Source: an uncultured virus (IMG/VR IMGVR_UViG_3300042914_003341)
Taxonomy: Duplodnaviria > Heunggongvirae > Uroviricota > Caudoviricetes
Strand: one strand, 5' to 3'
IMG/VR virus record: IMGVR_UViG_3300042914_003341
DNA: 64,000 nt
Below are positions 3,716 to 63,697 of the stretch, piece by piece (position 1 is the stretch's first letter; every line of letters starts with the position of its first letter). Below the pieces are notes generated by a model. The model made no database searches. It was not told the origin of the DNA and worked only from the letters and a program-made list of their open reading frames with translations. A program made the translations under genes and the position numbers.

Positions 3716-3846
3716 GTTGTTTCGTGCTCCCTTTCGATGTTCTGACCTTAGCACTCCCGTTCTGGTCTGTCAAGTGCGCCGTCATGCTCAGTGCCGCGGT
3801 GGGTTGCCTTGACGGGATAGCAGTTGGAGTGCAAGGGTGTTGGAGC

Positions 3847-3990
3847 CTAGCAGTTGGCCGCAGGATTGTCAAGAACAATGGTCTGACTGGGAGCCGTCAG
3901 AAGAACGGAAAGTTTGTTGCAACAAACTTTCCTGTCTTTTGTTATCCCAGCAAGACCGTTGGCCTTGACAGCCGTGTGAAAGATTGCTAG
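3847..3990. repeat. ~145-bp imperfect inverted repeat with a perfect 26-bp palindromic core and two divergent promoters
   Basis: Core ggaaagtttgttg|caacaaactttcc at 3907-3932; arms share ctagca..tgtcaag..caa(t/c)ggtct..ctggga. Confidence 0.85.
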
Positions 3991-14849: not shown

Positions 14850-15995
14850 CTAGCGCGCACAAACGTTTCCAGTGGGGCGAAACTCTTCGAAGAGTTTGTT
14901 GCGATTGCGAGGCTCCAGTTGCCAGGAGCCCGGGGTTTTCCGGGCAGTAAAGACAAACCGACGCACACGGATAGGCGCTGTGTTGATCATCAGGCCGACA
15001 TCTTTGTCAGTCATACTAGCAATCGACCGACAATATGCATCAACCTCAGTCCACAAGCCGGTGAACTCTTGATTGAAATACAAAGCCAATTCGTCGAACT
15101 CAGGATAAAACTCTTCCGGTAAGAGCAATTTCATTTCTGCTTCGGTCTGGTCACGTACTGCCGCCCAAACATTTAGCGGCGTAAGTCTGCTGATTGCGCG
15201 ATGCAATGCCGTGTAAATTTCGCCCTTCACCTTCATCCGTTCATTGGTGTCGACATATCGCAGGACAATTCCCTCCATCGTCCCAGGCAGTCCCTTTGCC
15301 CAAGCCATTGCAGCGTCAAGGGAATCAAAGGAATATCGCGGCGGAACCCACGTAGCATCAACACTCGCCGCAAGATCATCGAGATCATATTCCTCGCCGG
15401 TTTCCCTGTTGAAACCCCCAAGCAGGCAGAGCGCATCCGTGTCAAGATAGCTCACAACAACACGGTTCTCTGGATAGATGATCTCAGAAAGATACGTGGT
15501 CGCCGGGTTCATCCTCTCCGTGTTCATGGTGCTTCGCTGCGACCGCAACTGAGCCGTTGCGTGCTTTGCTTGATCAGAAACAAAGCTCCCACGAGTCGCC
15601 ACGTGCCACTGGTTGGCATATTCGAAACAAATCCCGAAGCTCCCATCCATCTTCAGGCGCACATCATAAGGCGCCTCCATGCGAACACGCGGAGCAAACT
15701 GCTCCGATGCATTGAAAAACTTGGGGAATGGCAACGCAACAACAGTCTTCGACGCCAGATCCACGATCAGACCACGACAGACACGAGTCACCCAGTCCCA
15801 TGCCTTTGTGAAAGTAACCTGCTCGGTGTAGTTGAAGATCGCTAGGCTGGGATAGTCGGGATGATAGCCGACAGAAACCAAACCTTGATCCTTGTAACCG
15901 CCAGGATCGAGCACCTTCGCAATCAGACGCATGACGTTCTCGTCACGGTTTCCAGCGAACGCAGCATAGAGAGGATGGATGCCGTTGGTCTTCAT
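14850..15995 (-). CDS. T4 Rnl1-like RNA ligase
   Basis: FNYT..CRGLIVD..PFPKFFN..KMDGS (motif I)..ATRGSF..EIIYP..EGIV..KVK. Confidence 0.92.
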   Translation of the reverse strand: MKTNGIHPLYAAFAGNRDENVMRLIAKVLDPGGYKDQGLVSVGYHPDYPSLAIFNYTEQVTFTKAWDWVTRVCRGLIVDLASKTVVALPFPKFFNASEQFAPRVRMEAPYDVRLKMDGSFGICFEYANQWHVATRGSFVSDQAKHATAQLRSQRSTMNTERMNPATTYLSEIIYPENRVVVSYLDTDALCLLGGFNRETGEEYDLDDLAASVDATWVPPRYSFDSLDAAMAWAKGLPGTMEGIVLRYVDTNERMKVKGEIYTALHRAISRLTPLNVWAAVRDQTEAEMKLLLPEEFYPEFDELALYFNQEFTGLWTEVDAYCRSIASMTDKDVGLMINTAPIRVRRFVFTARKTPGSWQLEPRNRNKLFEEFRPTGNVCAR

Positions 15996-26737: not shown

Positions 26738-27133
26738 TCATTCCTTGGGATTGAATTCAGATTCGTACACAAACTCAACGATTCGTGCTATCACAGCGCC
26801 AGTACGATCATAGTCGTCATCAATCCACGCTAGCACCAGGGCAGGATACTTTGCTGGGAGCTCCTCCGGAGAATTGATGCGAAAAACACTAGTGTCAACA
26901 CCCTGGTCTTCCCAGTAGGCAAACTGGTCCCACGCAGCGCTGTCGTTGGGATTTTCCTCAGCAAACTTGCTGACGTCTGAGATGAACGCAGTCTGGCCGC
27001 TCTCATCCTTCATTGGGAACTCAATCCCAAGAAAAGACTCAATCTCCTCCGGTGAGGTGTTGATGTTTGCGTCGAAGATTGCAACCATCTTTGCAACATA
27101 GTCTTCGTGGCTGTAACACAGGAAACGTTGCAT
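26738..27133 (-). CDS. Acidic hypothetical protein
   Basis: ORF behind promoter at ~27187. Confidence 0.7.
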   Translation of the reverse strand: MQRFLCYSHEDYVAKMVAIFDANINTSPEEIESFLGIEFPMKDESGQTAFISDVSKFAEENPNDSAAWDQFAYWEDQGVDTSVFRINSPEELPAKYPALVLAWIDDDYDRTGAVIARIVEFVYESEFNPKE

Positions 27134-27311
27134 GGCTGTGGTTATCCTTTTGTTGGTTAGTGTGAGGTGAGATGGTAGTGGTGGGATCCTAGCACGGTGC
27201 TAGGCGGCTGTCAAGTGACGTTGCTGATGATCGCTTCGTATTCTTCGTTGGATATGACGTGGCTCGTATAATCTGAGAGCAGCTTCACTCCATATACATT
27301 ATTCCTGTGAG

Positions 27312-27366
27312 TGCCCAGAGCCGGACTTGAACCGGCACGCCCGTTTGAATGGGCAAAACGTTGATT
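27312..27366 (-). pseudogene. 3' half of an interrupted class II tRNA (Leu-type)
   Basis: Long variable arm GCCC ATTCAAAC GGGC, T-arm GCCGG TTCAAGT CCGGC, acceptor 3' strand TCTGGGC-A. Confidence 0.8.
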
Positions 27367-27445
27367 TGGTGGCCCTTGTGGGATTCGAACCCACACTTTA
27401 AGAGGTTTTAAGTCTCCAGCCTACTTCCAATTGGGCTAAAGGGCC
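27367..27445 (-). tRNA. tRNA-Leu(TAA), short variable arm, encoded CCA
   Basis: GGCCCTT/AAGGGCC-A-CCA; anticodon loop CT TAA AA; T-arm GTGGG TTCGAAT CCCAC. Confidence 0.88.
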
Positions 27446-27497
27446 GTCGATTTGAAACAGCAAACACACAGTCTAGAAATATCTATACGTTTGCTAT

Positions 27498-28334
27498 ATG
27501 AGAAACAAACACAATAATAGTTGGGACGATGATCAATTAATTCTCGCAGTTTCGAAAAACGTTTCAATGGCCGGTACACTGAGGCAGCTTGGCTTGATAC
27601 CAAGCGGCGGCAATTACAAAACCTTAAACCGCGCAATAAAAAAACTCAATATTTCTACAAGCCATTGGACGGGAGCGGCACATCTGCGCGGAAAAACACA
27701 CAATTGGAACGTCTGTATCCCGCTGGAAGAAATATTGATAGAAAACAGCGAATATACTTGTATGCGTACATTGAAAAAACGATTGGTGCGTGCGGGCCTT
27801 ATGACATATGAATGCGCGATTTGCAATTTGCTTAGCTGGAACGGTCTTGAATTGGTTTTGCAACTTGATCATATCAATGGAATCAACAATGATCATCGGA
27901 TCGAAAATTTGCGTTTTTTGTGCCCAAACTGCCATTCTCAAACAGAAACGTTTGCAGGCAAAAACATAGGCAAAAATCCAGAATCGGCTATGCACAATCG
28001 CATCAAAAAAACAATACCCAATCTTTGCAAGATCGAAAAGCTTTGCAAGATCAAAAACCGATCACACCGTGCAGAAAAACAAAAACGAATTAATCGCTGT
28101 GGCAAATGCAACAAACCAATCGATAGGCGTTCTAAACACTGCGGGCTATGCAAAACAGATGATAAAATCATCTGGCCTTCCAATGAAGAACTAGCCGTTC
28201 TTGTGTGGAATGTGCCATGCGCACAGCTCGCTGTCGAACTGGGTGTTTCCGATAAAGCAATTGAAAAACGTTGCAAAAAATTTCAAATCGCAAAGCCGCC
28301 GCGGGGCTATTGGGCAAAACAAAGAGCCGTTTAG
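27498..28334 (+). CDS. HNH homing endonuclease
   Basis: CAICN..LQLDHINGINNDHRIENLRFLCPNCHSQT; C-terminal zinc finger and HTH (LAVELGVSDKAIEKRC..PPRGYW); AT-rich; only plus-strand gene. Confidence 0.92.
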   Translation: MRNKHNNSWDDDQLILAVSKNVSMAGTLRQLGLIPSGGNYKTLNRAIKKLNISTSHWTGAAHLRGKTHNWNVCIPLEEILIENSEYTCMRTLKKRLVRAGLMTYECAICNLLSWNGLELVLQLDHINGINNDHRIENLRFLCPNCHSQTETFAGKNIGKNPESAMHNRIKKTIPNLCKIEKLCKIKNRSHRAEKQKRINRCGKCNKPIDRRSKHCGLCKTDDKIIWPSNEELAVLVWNVPCAQLAVELGVSDKAIEKRCKKFQIAKPPRGYWAKQRAV

Positions 28335-28366
28335 TCCCCCGCGGCTGCCTATTACGCCATCTGGGC
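28330..28366 (-). pseudogene. 5' half of the interrupted class II tRNA (Leu-type)
   Basis: GCCCAGA TG GCG TAATAGGCAGC CGC G GGGGA CT..; GCCCAGA pairs perfectly with TCTGGGC at 27313-27319. Confidence 0.8.
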
Positions 28367-28883
28367 ATTGACCACCGAGAGGAGACTCGGTGTATGTGTT
28401 TAATACAAGAAGGTTTCTGTTCCTGGCACCGCCCTTTCCATTCGCTGTTGTTCGTCGGTGATCATCTTTATGAAAGGAGAAGCGTGGGTGATCACCGACC
28501 AGCCTTGCGTGTGTCTAACTGATGCTGAGTCTAGCAGGCTCGGAAACGCCTGTCAAGTTCAAGTCACTGATCAGAACACAGCTTGAACTTGATCTCGAAG
28601 CAATACTTCTTTTGTTTCTGAAAGAAAGGCAGGAACAGCCCGACTACGATATATAGTCGATCTTCATCAGAGGATGAGCTTTGTTTTCCAGATTCTCTGT
28701 ATGTCATCTTTCAGTTCAACTTCTTCTTGTCGATGGATGGAGGTTTCTTGGCATCTGCCAGCTTCTGTTTCTTCGCAACAATAGCACCTTTGAGCTCCTC
28801 AAGGATGATTGCCGCGATGCCTGTTGCCAGGGTAGAAACCAGGGTTTTGAGGAAAGTCTCTTTCATTCTTAGGGATTGGTTGG

Positions 28884-29168
28884 TCAGTCGTTTTGGTCTA
28901 GAATACCACGGAGTTCTGTGTTTGTAAGGTTGTGTCGGCGACGAAGCTCTGCAATTTCAGCAACAGCTTTTGCGCGACGCACTGCGTCAGCTTCTTCGTG
29001 ATCAGAAATCCAAACCTGAGCCTCTCTGGACAGGCCGTGTTCAAGCTGAGAACGTTTGATCAGCTTTGCCATCTCACATGCAACCCGGGTTGCAAGGTCA
29101 AGGCGTTCGTTGGAGTCGGTGGTTGCGTGGCCATATTCATGGCCATCGCGCGGATCAATGCATGGCAT
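28884..29168 (-). CDS. Hypothetical protein
   Basis: MPCIDP..ATRVAC..WISDHEEAD. Confidence 0.7.
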   Translation of the reverse strand: MPCIDPRDGHEYGHATTDSNERLDLATRVACEMAKLIKRSQLEHGLSREAQVWISDHEEADAVRRAKAVAEIAELRRRHNLTNTELRGILDQND

Positions 29169-33134: not shown

Positions 33135-33408
33135 TGCATTCTTCCTGTTCTTCTATGATGATATCAGTTGCTTCGCGGCGAATCTTCTTGTTCCAGTATC
33201 TTGCCTCTGATTGTCGGAACTTTGCTGCGCTTTCTGGGGTGACATAGGAAGGAGAACCGTCAAAGGCAATTCCTTCCTCAACCATCTCCTTGAGGGTTTT
33301 ACGAGGCAACCATCCAGGAAATCTGTGAATCAACTTCCTGCGGTGCTGTGCATCCTTCGTGGTGTGTTCCATCGCTGTCCGATCTGAAACCAGTCTAGCT
33401 CTTCTCAA
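33127..33408 (-). CDS. Hypothetical protein
   Basis: Minus-strand ORF. Confidence 0.6.
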   Translation of the reverse strand: MRRARLVSDRTAMEHTTKDAQHRRKLIHRFPGWLPRKTLKEMVEEGIAFDGSPSYVTPESAAKFRQSEARYWNKKIRREATDIIIEEQEECNE

Positions 33409-33417
33409 AGCTGTGTG

Positions 33418-34020
33418 TCAAGGGCCTGTTTGCAGCATGTCTGCTAGATCAATTAGCTCGTGCAGTATAGGAAAACTGGGTTGCGTTAGGTTGGAAATTG
33501 TTTCCAAGAGGTCATACTCGGATTGGATTAGCTTGTCACGCTCAAAATAATACAATTTACCATCCTCGCCATTGATTACCATTGAAATTTCACCAAGATT
33601 GATTCCCGCGGCGAAAATATCATACAGGCTCTGGCGCAATCGGCATTCCATGGCCCTGTACTCTTTTGTCAGATTTGAGACAATCATTGGCTCATTAACG
33701 GCCGAAACCCCAGCCAACACGTCGACATTGCGCTTAGTGACGCTATAAACATGGATGTTCATGGCATCCCAAACTGTTTCTGCCTCCAGGATTGATCGTT
33801 CAGCATATGAGCTAAGTGACATTGTAGGCGCCATTCTCAATCGAGAACCATTATTGCTCTCTACAACAGACGTCATATCAACTTCGCGTCGCAAAAGCAA
33901 TGGCCGCCTAGGCAGCCCGCGGTAGGCACCGAAAAAATTGATTGAAACAGCACGCTGCGCAACTGTCATGCTGTCCCAGGTATCAGGGTCAATAGCTAGT
34001 GGCATCGTTTTGTGCGTCAT
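33418..34020 (-). CDS. ELAD-motif family protein
   Basis: C-terminus ELIDLADMLQTGP*. Confidence 0.75.
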   Translation of the reverse strand: MTHKTMPLAIDPDTWDSMTVAQRAVSINFFGAYRGLPRRPLLLRREVDMTSVVESNNGSRLRMAPTMSLSSYAERSILEAETVWDAMNIHVYSVTKRNVDVLAGVSAVNEPMIVSNLTKEYRAMECRLRQSLYDIFAAGINLGEISMVINGEDGKLYYFERDKLIQSEYDLLETISNLTQPSFPILHELIDLADMLQTGP

Positions 34021-34692: not shown

Positions 34693-34763
34693 GTGGCGTT
34701 TGACCGATCCTTTCCAGTGAGAGCTAAGATCCTACAGCATGAGTGCTGCTCTGTCAAGCAGAC

Positions 34764-39090: not shown

Positions 39091-39288
39091 TCACAGGAAC
39101 ATGTCAGCCAGACAAGTAAATTTATCCAAGAATACGTACTCCGCGAGGTGTATTTCAAATGAATGCGTGTCACCAATGCTACAACACAAAGTAGGAACAA
39201 CATACCGGTAGTTGTAGCTAGTCCAATCGTCATAGAACGAGTTGCTATAGTCAATCAGCGCATCAAGCGGAAGTTTGTTTGATGTCAT
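39091..39288 (-). CDS. ELAD-motif family protein
   Basis: C-terminus FLDKFTCLADMFL*; ATGA-coupled to the ligase gene. Confidence 0.75.
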   Translation of the reverse strand: MTSNKLPLDALIDYSNSFYDDWTSYNYRYVVPTLCCSIGDTHSFEIHLAEYVFLDKFTCLADMFL

Positions 39289-40364
39289 GACGTGCTTGAT
39301 GGTTTGTTGAACACTGGTGCGGCATAACGCCATTTGTGCGTTTGAGGCTGATGGAATCCTTGTCTGACATATTTTCCAACAAGCTTGTGGTAGTCTTTGA
39401 TGTGAAAACCATTCACTGGTCGTACGACATAGCCTTCACAGGGATCGCCGCAGAACTCTGTTGGAATCCATCCTTTGCTAGAGAATAGCTTCTCATCAAA
39501 CTTGCCGCGATACAACTCTGGAACAACTGGGAGGTTCAACAATTCAGACCATTCCTTGAGTTCATCCCAGCTTAAACAGTTGCCGTCACCTTTCCAGATA
39601 TTGAACACCTGATAGAACCACCTGAGATGATTGATCAGGTTTTGATAATGGATTGTGTGTTGCCTGACCAGGTTCTCGCCGCAAACTCTCCAGCCACTCG
39701 GAATCTCGCCGCCAGACAATTCAGCAGCCAATGCCTTGATTCTCTCGCTGTTCGGTGTGCTCAGTGGTTCAATCCTCCTGGCATGAACATAACCATCAGA
39801 ATAGATTGAGCAGTTCTCACCGTCTTGTTTCACAGTCACCACAACATCCCCACAGGATTTGATAGGAGAAAGATCTGTGATGATCCTGTCGTCCTTTGTG
39901 GCGCCAGTACTCCAAGGCAAGTGCCACGTCCTAGGAGGCTTCACATATTGTTTCTGAAACAAGTGAAGTACCGGCGTGATCACCTTCTGGACTGACTCAT
40001 CCCAGAACAATGGTCCAGGTGTCCTAGTACCGTCTGATAGAACGAGATTGCCCCACTTGTCCCAAGTTTCATCTGGATATAGCTGTGGAGGTAAGAGAAC
40101 CTCAGAGATCCCTGCCAACTCGCGGAGTTTCTCACAACTAATCTCCGTGCTCTCTGCCTTCATGTGACAGTCAGGGTCACAGAGAGTGACTCCGTTGTTC
40201 AGGTAATAACCGCCATCACTCCAGAGCCTTCTTTCAAGGATGTGGTGTGCGTCAAGCGGTGTGTGCTTTGGAGTTTTGCCGCAAACAACACACTCATAAC
40301 CATCCCGCTTGAACACGGCTTCTCTGAACTGATCTCGCGTGAATAGCTTTGGAGTTGCTGACAT
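39285..40364 (-). CDS. HNH domain fused to an RNA ligase (Rnl2-like nucleotidyltransferase)
   Basis: N-terminal CVVCG..LDAHHI..NGVTLC..CH; C-terminal PRTWHLPWS, KQDGEN, VCGEN, VFNIW, EGYVVR, KYVR. Confidence 0.85.
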   Translation of the reverse strand: MSATPKLFTRDQFREAVFKRDGYECVVCGKTPKHTPLDAHHILERRLWSDGGYYLNNGVTLCDPDCHMKAESTEISCEKLRELAGISEVLLPPQLYPDETWDKWGNLVLSDGTRTPGPLFWDESVQKVITPVLHLFQKQYVKPPRTWHLPWSTGATKDDRIITDLSPIKSCGDVVVTVKQDGENCSIYSDGYVHARRIEPLSTPNSERIKALAAELSGGEIPSGWRVCGENLVRQHTIHYQNLINHLRWFYQVFNIWKGDGNCLSWDELKEWSELLNLPVVPELYRGKFDEKLFSSKGWIPTEFCGDPCEGYVVRPVNGFHIKDYHKLVGKYVRQGFHQPQTHKWRYAAPVFNKPSSTS

Positions 40365-40826: not shown

Positions 40827-40900
40827 TGGTACGCCTGCTGTGATTTGAACACAGCCTAATCGGATATAAGCCGAAACCCGACAACCAATCGGACAGGCGC
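40827..40900 (-). tRNA. tRNA-Ile(TAT)
   Basis: GCGCCTG/CAGGCGT-A-CCA; TCGG CT TAT AT CCGA; CTGTG TTCAAAT CACAG. Confidence 0.8.
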
Positions 40901-54682: not shown

Positions 54683-54765
54683 GATAGTACCTGTTCTTTC
54701 CGTCCCGGTGTGCTTGGGAACAGACCAGAGTCTAGCAAACGCCAGGAGTGATGTCAAGTGTAACG

Positions 54766-58662: not shown

Positions 58663-59757
58663 TCACTTCATTGAGAGATACTTGTCTGAGACGTTCTTCA
58701 GAGAAATACGGCCGACCTGCGGATGGATGCGCTCCTTTGGAGTCTTGACGACAAGACCTTCACGGATCTTTTGTCCTGGAAAGATCTTCTCATCTGATTC
58801 CTCTGAGAGTTTCCAGAGGAGCTCCTTGTTGTGTTTGCCGCGATAAACCACGGGCACAGTTTCACCGATGCCTGCCATGAGCTCAGTATCGTCGATCAGA
58901 CGCGCGTTGTCGACCCACTTCCCATCAACAAGGATATCAAACACGGCAAACCCGAACACTCCCTCCGGTTTTGCATATGCAAACTGAGCACCCTGACAAC
59001 GTGTGCCATAGACCTCGCCATACAGAACCTTGCCAGGATTGTTCCTGCACCAAGTCTCAATCCATGGGTTGTCCTCCAGCGTCTGCCACCAGTTGCTGTT
59101 TGGTGCAAGAATATCCTTCGGAACTTCCTCGCCAGTCACTTCATCCTTGACAGTGACAGTCTTGATGAACTTCCCTGGACGCTTCTTCCAGGTTGTCCTG
59201 CTTCCACAGAACATGTCATTCCCATCAAACACATACCTTGCGTTCTGGCCGTGAATCTTGACGGAATAGATCACGTCGTCTTCACCCTCGACCAGAACAG
59301 AGTTGTTCTTGCGAATGTTCTCCAGATCATAGACTGGAGCATTCACCTCTGGTCCTGTCTCACACAGACCAGACATTGCATCAGTGGGGCCACCGAGAGA
59401 ACCACGAGGAGGAGGCGGCTCATACCTTTCAACACCGAAATGATCCCAGGCATTGTCTCCTTCAACCATACCTTCGGGAGCTGGGAGGAGAAGACCATAG
59501 GACTGTTGGCCGCGAAACCTTCGCGTGGTGATGCGCTCGAAGTCGCGACCCTTTCCAGTGTCAAGGAATGAGAACTCAATCCTGTTCAGGGGAACCTTGG
59601 TGTCAGGCTCAATGAAGGCAGCAAGGTCACCCTCCTGAAACTGACCACGCTTGACCACACAGGGATAGTCCCAGATCATGGTCAGAACAATAGAGTCCGC
59701 ACACTCAATCGGAGTGACAGGACCAACCTTCACAATGCGTACTTCGTGTGTGCTCAT
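58663..59757 (-). CDS. RNA ligase, DRB0094 (Rnl5) family
   Basis: N-terminal OB-like PI..AD.I..CVV.RGQF..GDLA.FIEPD..RFRGQ.S.GLL; KIHGQN, LYGEVYG, VFDI, REGLVVK, LK.VS..YL. Confidence 0.9.
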   Translation of the reverse strand: MSTHEVRIVKVGPVTPIECADSIVLTMIWDYPCVVKRGQFQEGDLAAFIEPDTKVPLNRIEFSFLDTGKGRDFERITTRRFRGQQSYGLLLPAPEGMVEGDNAWDHFGVERYEPPPPRGSLGGPTDAMSGLCETGPEVNAPVYDLENIRKNNSVLVEGEDDVIYSVKIHGQNARYVFDGNDMFCGSRTTWKKRPGKFIKTVTVKDEVTGEEVPKDILAPNSNWWQTLEDNPWIETWCRNNPGKVLYGEVYGTRCQGAQFAYAKPEGVFGFAVFDILVDGKWVDNARLIDDTELMAGIGETVPVVYRGKHNKELLWKLSEESDEKIFPGQKIREGLVVKTPKERIHPQVGRISLKNVSDKYLSMK

Positions 59758-62562: not shown

Positions 62563-62798
62563 GACTCTGATGAATTGGTTTTTTGGTTGATGATAATGAA
62601 CATGTCTCCCAGGTCTGCGAGCAAGGCGATATCCTCTGGCGCCTTGATCATCAGGCGCACATCAAAACAGCTTTTGAGCTTGTAGTACATGTAAGCATAG
62701 TAGCAAACATCGTCTGCTGGATGGCCGATATGGTCTGGCCAGTCTTCCGGGACAAGGCCCATGTCTGTTGGTATGTTGTATAACTGTTGCCATTTCAT
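62559..62798 (-). CDS. ELAD-motif family protein
   Basis: LLADLGDMFIII near the C-terminus. Confidence 0.75.
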   Translation of the reverse strand: MKWQQLYNIPTDMGLVPEDWPDHIGHPADDVCYYAYMYYKLKSCFDVRLMIKAPEDIALLADLGDMFIIINQKTNSSES

Positions 62799-63697
62799 TG
62801 GCTTAGCAGCTTGGTCAATCTGTCATGAGTTGTTTGCGGCGAAAACCAGAACGTCGTTGTAGGTTCTTTGCAGTAATCCTCCAGAAGATCGACCACTGGC
62901 TCATACTGCGAGCGTTGATAGGTATAAAACCTTGCGCCGGTCAGTGTGTCGACATGTTCTTCTAGACCTTTGCAACCAAACCTGGGATTGTTCTCTCGTT
63001 CTGCCGCCAGCTCCTGCTCGGACATGGTGACATCTGCCTTGATATGTTTGAACAACCTGCCACAACGCCTGTGTGTTGGCAGCGACAGCCATGGAGTTGC
63101 ACCTTCGTTTCTTCCATCTTCTGTGTGAGCAATGAGCTGTGCAGAGTTCATGCCACTTAGCTCCTTGTTTGATGAATATTGGCGTGCCCACTGAGCCACT
63201 GAGTTCCTCCTGGCATCACACATCCTCCAGCAGATGTTTGCCGCAACATCTTCGCAAGTTGGCAGCGAAAAAGCTCTGGCATCGAACGTCGCCATATCTC
63301 CGGATATCTTGCCAGAAGCTTGAGCAAACTTTGTCGTCATCATCGACGCCATCAGGGTCGAGAACTTCAAGATTCTTCCGCCGCTCAGTTGGTTCACCTT
63401 GCTGGGTTCGAACACCATGGTGAGTTCATCTGAGAATGTGTAAAGCAGCGCTGGAGCATAGACCTTCGCCATGGCCAAAGCTGTGTCAGTCATTGCTTTC
63501 TCAAAGGCTGGATGCCATGTGTCCTTGTTGCCTTGAGCAGTTGGATAGTTTTCCTTGACCCAAGTAGAGAACCCATGGCCATCCAAACGAACAACCGCCC
63601 ATTCAAGTGGAGTTAGTTGTTTTTTGCCGCGAAACCTCTCCTCGATGTCCTTGAAGTGGTTCCCAGAATCATTGATACCTCTGATGTTCATTTGCAT
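62795..63697 (-). CDS. Thg1-like tRNA(His) guanylyltransferase / 3'-5' polymerase (TLP)
   Basis: VVRLDGHGFS, YTFSDELT, GRILKFS..AS, FDARAF, WR..DARRNSV. Confidence 0.9.
   Translation of the reverse strand: MQMNIRGINDSGNHFKDIEERFRGKKQLTPLEWAVVRLDGHGFSTWVKENYPTAQGNKDTWHPAFEKAMTDTALAMAKVYAPALLYTFSDELTMVFEPSKVNQLSGGRILKFSTLMASMMTTKFAQASGKISGDMATFDARAFSLPTCEDVAANICWRMCDARRNSVAQWARQYSSNKELSGMNSAQLIAHTEDGRNEGATPWLSLPTHRRCGRLFKHIKADVTMSEQELAAERENNPRFGCKGLEEHVDTLTGARFYTYQRSQYEPVVDLLEDYCKEPTTTFWFSPQTTHDRLTKLLSQ

Follow-up and report, generated by a model that had tools for sequence, protein, structure and literature searches.

How does a tRNA gene come to be cut in two by another gene, and what becomes of its function? 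The question is raised by the uncultured virus record IMGVR_UViG_3300042914_003341 (Caudoviricetes), from which a stretch of 64,000 nucleotides, here called the window, was analyzed. In this window the two parts of one tRNA-Leu gene (the outer tRNA) flank an insert that carries an HNH endonuclease gene together with a second, complete tRNA-Leu (the inner, or spare, tRNA). The best reading, to which we assign a probability of about 0.62, is that the nuclease would cut intact tRNA-Leu alleles, that nuclease and spare tRNA would be copied together, and that the spare would compensate for the gene that is lost. The window is a piece of a very large lake-water phage; its proteins have their nearest records among uncultured huge phages and jumbo phages (~35-50% protein identity), and the runs that contain the stretch are lake-water metagenomes.

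The outer gene is a bacterial-type class II tRNA-Leu, cut at the anticodon loop. Its 5′ part comprises the acceptor strand GCCCAGA, U8 and G9, a D stem of 3 bp (GCG/CGC) whose loop has 11 nt, G26, and the 5′ strand of the anticodon stem, GGGGA, followed by C32 and U33. The 3′ part opens with the variable arm, U-GCCC-AUUCAAAC-GGGC-GU, and runs through the T arm (GCCGG-UUCAAGU-CCGGC) and the acceptor strand UCUGGGC to A73; 29-33 nt of it are identical to the 3′ ends of bacterial tRNA-Leu genes (Table 1). The acceptor strands are complementary at 7/7 positions, and the retained D, variable and T stems are perfect. The Leu-type acceptor, the 3-bp D stem with a large loop, the long variable arm, the T arm and A73 are all in place, and the anticodon arm is incomplete: positions 34-43, the ten bases of the anticodon and the 3′ stem strand, are absent, and 977 bp stand in their stead. 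With introns allowed and at its default threshold, ARAGORN made one intron-type call in 64 kb, c[27311,28366]. A tRNA-Leu covariance model (R1), built from 15 tRNA-Leu genes of other sources, placed both parts on one strand and in the order expected of a single gene. The split is therefore real and beyond chance, because the sole intron-type call of ARAGORN is joined by scores of ~21 bits for each part from an independent tRNA-Leu model. Default ARAGORN and Rfam searches detect the inner tRNA-Leu(taa) and neither outer half. The original prediction had described the halves of one class II tRNA, and the acceptor pairing, the ARAGORN call and the covariance scores all bear this out. Its coordinates were likewise correct, except that the 3′ half, which it had placed at 27366-27312, begins at 27355, the bases 27366-27356 being filler.

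The 977-bp insert (28332-27356) consists of the HNH open reading frame (ORF), a 52-bp spacer, the inner tRNA and 11 filler bases, and 63 bp of it (52 of spacer, 11 of filler) lie outside ORF and tRNA. Its GC fraction is 0.423 (0.422 in the HNH gene) against 0.48-0.49 in the flanks, in agreement with the AT-rich, oppositely oriented HNH gene that had been reported between the halves. The cassette looks foreign and recent. The HNH stop codon, TAG at 28332-28334, overlaps C32 and U33 of the old anticodon loop, which had been proposed to supply it. Homologues stop two or three codons past a GYWAK motif, and the window ORF is four codons longer and extends into the tRNA. At the other joint, the cargo CCA was said to abut the 3′ half; instead, the 11 filler bases (AATCAACGTTT) separate it from the variable arm, and they supply no 3′ anticodon-stem strand. 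Nor does the description of that strand as decayed hold up, given that the other stems are all perfect and that ten lost and eleven filler bases resemble an insertion scar. The joints look like the scar of a repair rather than the product of drift or decay, and the insertion event looks recent, because every remaining stem is perfect and the nuclease gene still intact. A ten-base direct repeat near both joints, GTTTTGCCCA, was considered as a target-site duplication and rejected, since a 1.3-kb stretch is expected to hold ~0.8 repeats of this kind. One copy of the repeat encodes W-A-K of the C-terminal KPPRGYWAK motif of the nuclease, which is fully shared by 2/5 homologues.

The nuclease belongs to the T5 F-TflIV-like group and is a predicted free-standing HNH homing endonuclease of PHROG 10822. 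The protein matches PHROG 10822 at E 3.1e-51 over residues 5-260 and the Pfam HNH family at E 0.001 (19.6 bits, under the cut-off of 21.4); NCBIfam gave no useful name. The catalytic motif is present with its flanking cysteine pairs (DHINGINNDHRIENLRFLCPNCH), and H125, N137, C142-P-N-C145, C106 and C109 are invariant in a six-sequence alignment of the window protein and five homologues, to which it is 27-54% identical. A helix-turn-helix-like region at the C-terminus ends in KPPRGYW, and KPPRGYW or KPERGYW is common to the window and to loci L083 and L004. A tblastn search with the nuclease matched 231 phage records, 14 of them over at least 80% of the query, and the match in a T5-like Salmonella phage covers 92%. 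Among the annotations of homologues are ‘TflIV e 4.8e-37’ in Klebsiella phage Muenster and ‘F-TflIV’ for hegA of Enterococcus phage Bop. The gene stands alone, with no intron family in 26800-28900 and with its ORF antisense to the interrupted gene.

The inner tRNA is the best covariance-model match in the window. It has a Leu-type 3-bp D stem with the loop CAAUUGGAAGUA, a 6-nt variable loop and A73. The claim of a complete tRNA-Leu(TAA) with a short variable arm was upheld by ARAGORN and Rfam; far from being an isolated oddity, however, it is of a widespread phage type. By blastn, look-alikes were found in 91 phage records (58 over at least 80% of the length), and the inner tRNA shares 82% identity with the one in Pseudomonas phage 16Q. 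In the records that were opened, 16Q, Mycobacterium phage Kykar and Sinorhizobium phage Phosso have one short-type gene each, and Citrobacter phage Michonne has three, with the anticodons tag, caa and taa, which are all of its tRNA-Leu genes. The hosts thus include phages of Pseudomonas, Citrobacter, Mycobacterium and Sinorhizobium and, by the match list, Lactobacillus. The type (L094-L097 and the window) is defined by a length of 75-79 nt, a conserved D arm (UAGCCCAAUUGGnAG), a variable loop of 5-7 nt and A73, and in a seven-sequence alignment 14/21 pairs show double compensatory changes. Judged by this covariation, the spare tRNA is real and a member of a covarying phage family. The small ORFs beside the short tRNA-Leu genes of Michonne and Phosso show no relationship to one another; of the two, only that of Michonne is an HNH gene. 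According to the available portion of one source, the leucyl-tRNA synthetase of E. coli requires A73 and tertiary contacts of the D loop with the T loop, not the long arm, which is kept by all tRNA-Leu outside animal mitochondria (PMC9976931). Leucine charging of the inner tRNA is predicted, and it would now read UUA and UUG and do the work of the outer gene; these two codons account for 23% of the leucine codons (738 in all) of 40 long window ORFs. No description of a short-arm phage tRNA-Leu was found in the literature, with subscription journals outside coverage, and the type merits a separate note.

Which tRNA was broken? The outer gene is probably a tRNA-Leu with the anticodon UAA. Genomic loci that share its first 10 bases, its T arm and its acceptor 3′ strand are tRNA-Leu(taa) in 77/78 cases and Leu(gag) in one, a count that represents three lineages, as 76 of the 78 are from Streptomyces. 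An exact 25-mer of the 3′ part matched a single viral contig (L001), which bears an ordinary tRNA-Leu(taa). In the lake runs, three distinct foreign loose ends are stacked on 27313-27345 (break at 27345/27346) and read CTTAAAA on the reverse complement. Alignment to Streptomyces tRNA-Leu(taa) (TGCCCC-TTCG-CGGGCGT, versus TGCCC-ATTCAAA-CGGGCGT in the window) shows variable arms that are alike except in the loop. The TGCCC of the window is therefore variable arm, and the joined ‘tRNA-Thr(agt)’ drawn by ARAGORN is consequently a misfold. We rejected that model, which uses TGCCC as the 3′ stem strand and has a G.G mismatch, a CUAGUUU loop, U37 and an unstructured extra arm. The three A residues after CU, and the AAUC that follows the inner CCA, may be what is left of a UAA loop, or they may be cassette sequence.

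Relatives of the nuclease also lie at tRNA genes. A tRNA gene was found within 200 bp of the homologue at 11/11 loci, which were hand-picked from the top 30 listed rows of the 231 matching records, and it was a tRNA-Leu at 6/11, five of them taa. In LR745208.1 (L003 2836-3953), a truncated homologue of 215 aa runs into the antisense 3′ end of a tRNA-Leu(taa), the last gene of a five-member tRNA-Leu array (cag, gag, tag, caa, taa) in which no two acceptor stems are the same. Salicola phage SCTP-2 has a tRNA-Leu(caa), an antisense HNH gene and a tRNA-Leu(taa), all intact and in the same order as in the window. In Salmonella phage SE_PL the homologue adjoins a tRNA-Leu(taa), and neither the covariance model nor ARAGORN reports a half-tRNA there. 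Across L083, L085-L088, L003, L095 and L097, the covariance model likewise found no half-tRNA near nuclease homologues or short tRNA-Leu genes.

The closest parallel comes from Enterococcus phages. In Enterococcus phage 113, ARAGORN flags a split tRNA around the nuclease homologue. Megablast with this locus returned 35 Enterococcus phage records, two of which (113 and Bop) have the nuclease; most of the others match in two pieces that omit it, and 18/35 rows list a tRNA-Gln there. That tRNA-Gln is whole in EFGrNG, and ~745 bp with the nuclease gene take the place of its anticodon arm in phage 113, the remainders being untouched. Close relatives thus differ in the presence or absence of the nuclease at one locus. 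Read from these alignments, the nuclease family is one that lands in tRNA anticodon arms and destroys the gene, in a manner that is not intron-like. As a side observation, Enterococcus phage iF6 (L089 877-2233) has an unannotated nuclease homologue amid tRNA-like fragments (3′ and 5′ halves by ARAGORN), possibly another broken array.

Table 1. Features of the interrupted tRNA-Leu locus and of other sites discussed in the text; positions refer to the window unless a locus is named.
Feature	Position	Strand	Basis or remarks
Outer tRNA, 5′ part (positions 1-33)	28333..28366	-	Sequence; ARAGORN -io; covariance model 21.6 bits, E 0.0015; alignment to intact tRNA-Leu(taa) of loci L005/L001/L006
Outer tRNA, 3′ part (position 44 to A73; no encoded CCA)	27312..27355	-	Sequence; covariance model 21.3 bits, E 0.0018
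HNH endonuclease gene, intact and free-standing; 278 aa; outer tRNA on the opposite strand	27498..28334	+	ORF list; PHROG 10822; Pfam HNH
AT-rich spacer, 52 bp, between HNH start and divergent inner tRNA	27446..27497	.	CTAGACT box resembling the phage promoter motif's -10; poor -35
Inner tRNA-Leu(UAA), encoded CCA	27367..27445	-	ARAGORN; Rfam tRNA 51 bits; covariance model 53.2 bits, E 3.5e-12
Filler AATCAACGTTT, 11 bases between cargo CCA and outer variable arm	27356..27366	-	Comparison with intact homologues
Terminator-like hairpin just past HNH stop and antisense 5′ part	28373..28392	+	Sequence scan
Promoter-like site TTGACA-17-TAGACT, ~160 bp upstream of outer 5′ end	28528..28556	-	Motif scan
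Promoter-like motif sites	3844-3872, 27186-27214, 28528-28556, 33392-33421, 34729-34757, 54729-54757	-	Motif scan
RNA ligase homologues (three; one with HNH-like N-terminus) and Thg1-like tRNA-His guanylyltransferase homologue	14850-15995, 39285-40364, 58663-59757, 62795-63697	-	PHROG scans
Nuclease homologue (hegA), 40% identical	L084 1394-2221 (Enterococcus phage 113), L093 (Bop)	same as tRNA-Gln	tRNA remnants/loss unannotated in records

These observations suggest the following course of events. A copy of a mobile cassette, made up of the HNH gene and a phage-type short tRNA-Leu(UAA), may have been inserted in the anticodon arm of a class II tRNA-Leu resident in the phage; the insertion would have removed positions 34-43, put 977 bp in their place and left the outer gene as two structurally perfect, useless pieces. 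The nuclease would cut intact tRNA-Leu alleles in or near the anticodon arm, and repair from a cassette-bearing genome would copy the nuclease and the spare tRNA together. The spare tRNA would itself escape cutting through its differing sequence and would render the loss of the resident gene harmless, so that the element persists.

The habit of the family at tRNA genes (11/11) and the tRNA-Gln lesion of the Enterococcus phages lend indirect support to the selfish element that was originally proposed. Searches of IMG/VR, of phages, of the contigs of four lake runs and of a metagenome scan found no relative with an intact GCCCAGA..TCTGGGC tRNA-Leu at this locus, and the same combination of HNH gene and tRNA was not met elsewhere, the cargo pattern having no match in IMG/VR and the pair no second copy. 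Megablast against the phage collection yielded no relative of the locus. IMG/VR held no relative of either flanking protein and no match to an exact 22-mer of the outer 5′ part, and the flanking proteins were not found in LR745208.1 or LR756511.1. The literature, again with subscription journals outside coverage, yielded no report of a nuclease-plus-tRNA cassette that splits a tRNA gene.

Several points weigh against the proposed homing. No joint of a nuclease-free allele occurs in the contigs of the four lake runs, although contigs cannot show absence, and no close relatives of the HNH gene or of the cargo tRNA were found in IMG/VR. A related contig (L002), the sole one from a single metagenome scan, is 82-90% identical over 3.3 kb and loses homology at window position 27295, 17 bp past the end of the tRNA; its remaining 59 bases (1-59) hold a hairpin-like sequence and no tRNA 3′ end. 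As L002 lacks this tRNA there, the locus has had a more complicated history than simple insertion into a conserved resident gene would give, and the tRNA locus is, on this alignment, a variable spot between conserved genes. The tRNA-Leu(taa) genes beside other family members are variously oriented and of the ordinary class II, not of the short type, and the Enterococcus insert carries no spare tRNA. Finally, T4 SegB recognizes a T-loop motif, not the anticodon arm, in the available portion of the report (PMC2330249).

The alternative that survives best, and which we nevertheless regard as unlikely, is that the array was rearranged with no targeted homing. The HNH gene and the short tRNA-Leu would then be ordinary array neighbors, as in SCTP-2, where the corresponding genes stand in this order and are all intact. 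Illegitimate recombination or deletions, possibly between near-identical tRNA-Leu paralogues, would have left the 5′ and 3′ pieces, and the true target of the nuclease would be elsewhere, for example in the T loop, as for SegB in what is available of that report (PMC2330249). Untidy joints, with 10 bases lost and 11 filler bases gained, are unlike clean homologous homing and suit this account, as does the variability of the locus among relatives that L002 reveals. Two independent deletions would, however, have to leave exactly complementary remainders (position 33 at one end, 44 at the other) of genes with identical acceptor stems, and the five tRNA-Leu genes of LR745208.1 all differ in their acceptor stems. 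At the Enterococcus homologue, moreover, it is a single gene that bears a lesion of this type, and an empty site is available to compare with it.

Could the outer parts still be transcribed, excised and joined, through an unrecognized intron or by the RNA ligases of the phage, into a working split tRNA? The thought is encouraged by the perfection of every retained stem, by the promoter-like site upstream, by the presence in the window of no fewer than three homologues of RNA ligases and one Thg1-like enzyme, and by the ability of ARAGORN to draw a joined cloverleaf. A transcript from 28528-28556 would cross the 5′ part, the antisense HNH gene, the cargo tRNA and the 3′ part. We nonetheless judge a working split tRNA very improbable. 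No group I or group II intron or other intron family was found by Rfam at E up to 10 in 26800-28900, nor any other ribozyme; matches to Twister-sister (19.2 bits against a cut-off of 34) and, weakly, to Plastid-ycf2 on the outer 3′ part are far under the cut-offs and were taken as chance. The insert is almost entirely antisense ORF and tRNA. The 3′ anticodon-stem strand is missing, and the joined model misuses the variable arm and carries a G.G mismatch and U37; the joined parts cannot give a canonical tRNA, because positions 34-43 are missing and a strand of the variable arm must be borrowed. A helper helix between the outer halves was not apparent either, the trailer/leader duplex (-11.6 kcal/mol) being equalled by 16-19% of 2000 shuffles. 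The homologous lesion in the Enterococcus phages, in turn, removes the whole anticodon arm.

Group I introns interrupt the anticodon loop of tRNA-Leu(UAA) in cyanobacteria and plastids and may house homing endonuclease genes. The interruption in the window likewise falls in the anticodon loop of a tRNA-Leu, probably UAA, but it differs in having no detectable ribozyme core between the exons, an antisense ORF and ten missing tRNA bases; splicing could not restore the tRNA because these bases are missing, and the joined exons are not a canonical tRNA. The split tRNA genes of Nanoarchaeum and its relatives have complete halves with complementary extensions and depend on the archaeal splicing endonuclease. 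They too are parted at the anticodon loop, whereas the anticodon arm of the window gene is incomplete and its extensions pair no better than chance. The outer gene is thus most likely dead, as the original prediction held, and its further statement that the element does not splice out is in keeping with the lack of an intron family and with the ten tRNA bases that are gone.

The weakest explanation, that mis-assembly of metagenome reads fused the halves and the cassette into a chimera, has in its favor the metagenome-type source of the window and the tendency of tRNA T arms to attract foreign reads (with excess depth and loose ends at 27270-27396), yet it is practically negligible, because independent contigs of four other lake runs from four studies (X2, X5, X6 and X7, a possible source run being excluded) bridge the joints with zero letter differences, the 5′ joint (HNH end/outer 5′ part) in 4/4 and the 3′ joint (filler/outer 3′ part) in 3/4. 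The split layout, the same in these four runs, is fixed in the population.

Parts of the locus have counterparts in known systems. SegB of T4 and T6 is a free-standing GIY-YIG homing endonuclease in a tRNA gene cluster; as far as the available portions of the reports go, it cuts inside tRNA genes of relatives that lack segB, repair drags neighboring tRNA genes along, and SegB homologues are statistically tied to tRNA genes (PMC2330249, PMC13096335). Like the window HNH gene, segB is a lone nuclease gene among phage tRNA genes. It differs in its GIY-YIG fold, in lying between intact tRNA genes and in recognizing the T-loop motif, and those portions, unlike the window, present neither a split tRNA nor a dedicated spare with the same anticodon. 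The T5 HNH endonucleases F-TflI/II/IV are said, in the available parts of two sources, to lie in the T5 tRNA cluster (PMC2330249, PMC10644984). They belong, by the annotation of homologues, to the same protein group as the window nuclease, and both are found among tRNA genes; in the records of T5-like and jumbo phages the gene stands between whole tRNA genes, whereas in the window it lies inside one, with a tRNA of the same anticodon adjoining. The hegA insertion of the Enterococcus phages 113 and vB_OCPT_Bop (Schiekvirus) shares with the window a 3′ break where the anticodon stem meets the variable region. Its nuclease, however, is codirectional with the tRNA rather than antisense, there is no spare tRNA, and the 5′ break is at the start of the anticodon stem instead of in the loop.

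Other features of the window concern its transcription and tRNA metabolism. Six copies of the promoter-like motif TTGACA-N16-18-TAG[GA][AC]T were counted, every one on the minus strand, against 0.06 expected; they probably represent a promoter class of the phage itself that the host RNA polymerase reads. In the spacer 27446-27497, a promoter scan gave weak promoter-like matches only. At the 3′ end of the HNH message, the codons of the conserved nuclease PPRG (28295-28306) pair at 11/12 positions with 28337-28348, in the D-stem/anticodon-stem stretch of the outer tRNA. This end, with both hairpins and the stop codon enclosed, folds at -46.4 kcal/mol (z -2.7; 2/200 shuffles as good), and the hairpin may be due to chance or to selection. 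Several endonucleases were also found among the window proteins by PHROG scans. An RNA ligase Rnl2 with an HNH-like N-terminus has been described in a review of jumbo phages (PMC7824862), and the three RNA ligase homologues and the Thg1-like homologue of the window amount to a heavy predicted investment in tRNA repair. Separately, a fourth tRNA-like gene of the window, at 40827-40900 (-), 16 bp downstream of a tRNA-Thr(tgt), has the anticodon loop CUUAUAU (UAU, a reader of AUA). It scored 30.8 bits (E 5e-6) with the tRNA-Leu covariance model, had no match to the Rfam tRNA model at E up to 1 and is seen by ARAGORN only at lowered thresholds.

That free-standing homing endonucleases live among phage tRNA genes and cut them is known; new here are the landing inside such a gene and the differently built spare tRNA. 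We offer, as a tentative and rather doubtful extension, that the locus may exemplify a general, undescribed class of ‘break-and-replace’ homing cassettes, in which a nuclease would target the anticodon arm of a host-like tRNA and install a phage-type tRNA with the same anticodon. The payload might itself be advantageous: a tRNA-Leu that lacks the long variable arm and is built on another anticodon stem might be spared by tRNA-cutting nucleases of the host, and drive and anti-defence benefit would spread together. The case ties together the T5 F-TflIV-like nucleases, the empty and filled site pair of the Enterococcus phages and the widespread phage tRNA-Leu that lacks a long arm, and it is testable in cultured systems. 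If the proposed homing is true, it would reveal a way for a selfish element to ruin a useful gene and yet not bear the cost, and it would provide a mechanism for the remodelling of phage tRNA sets, in which host-like molecules give way to phage-type ones.

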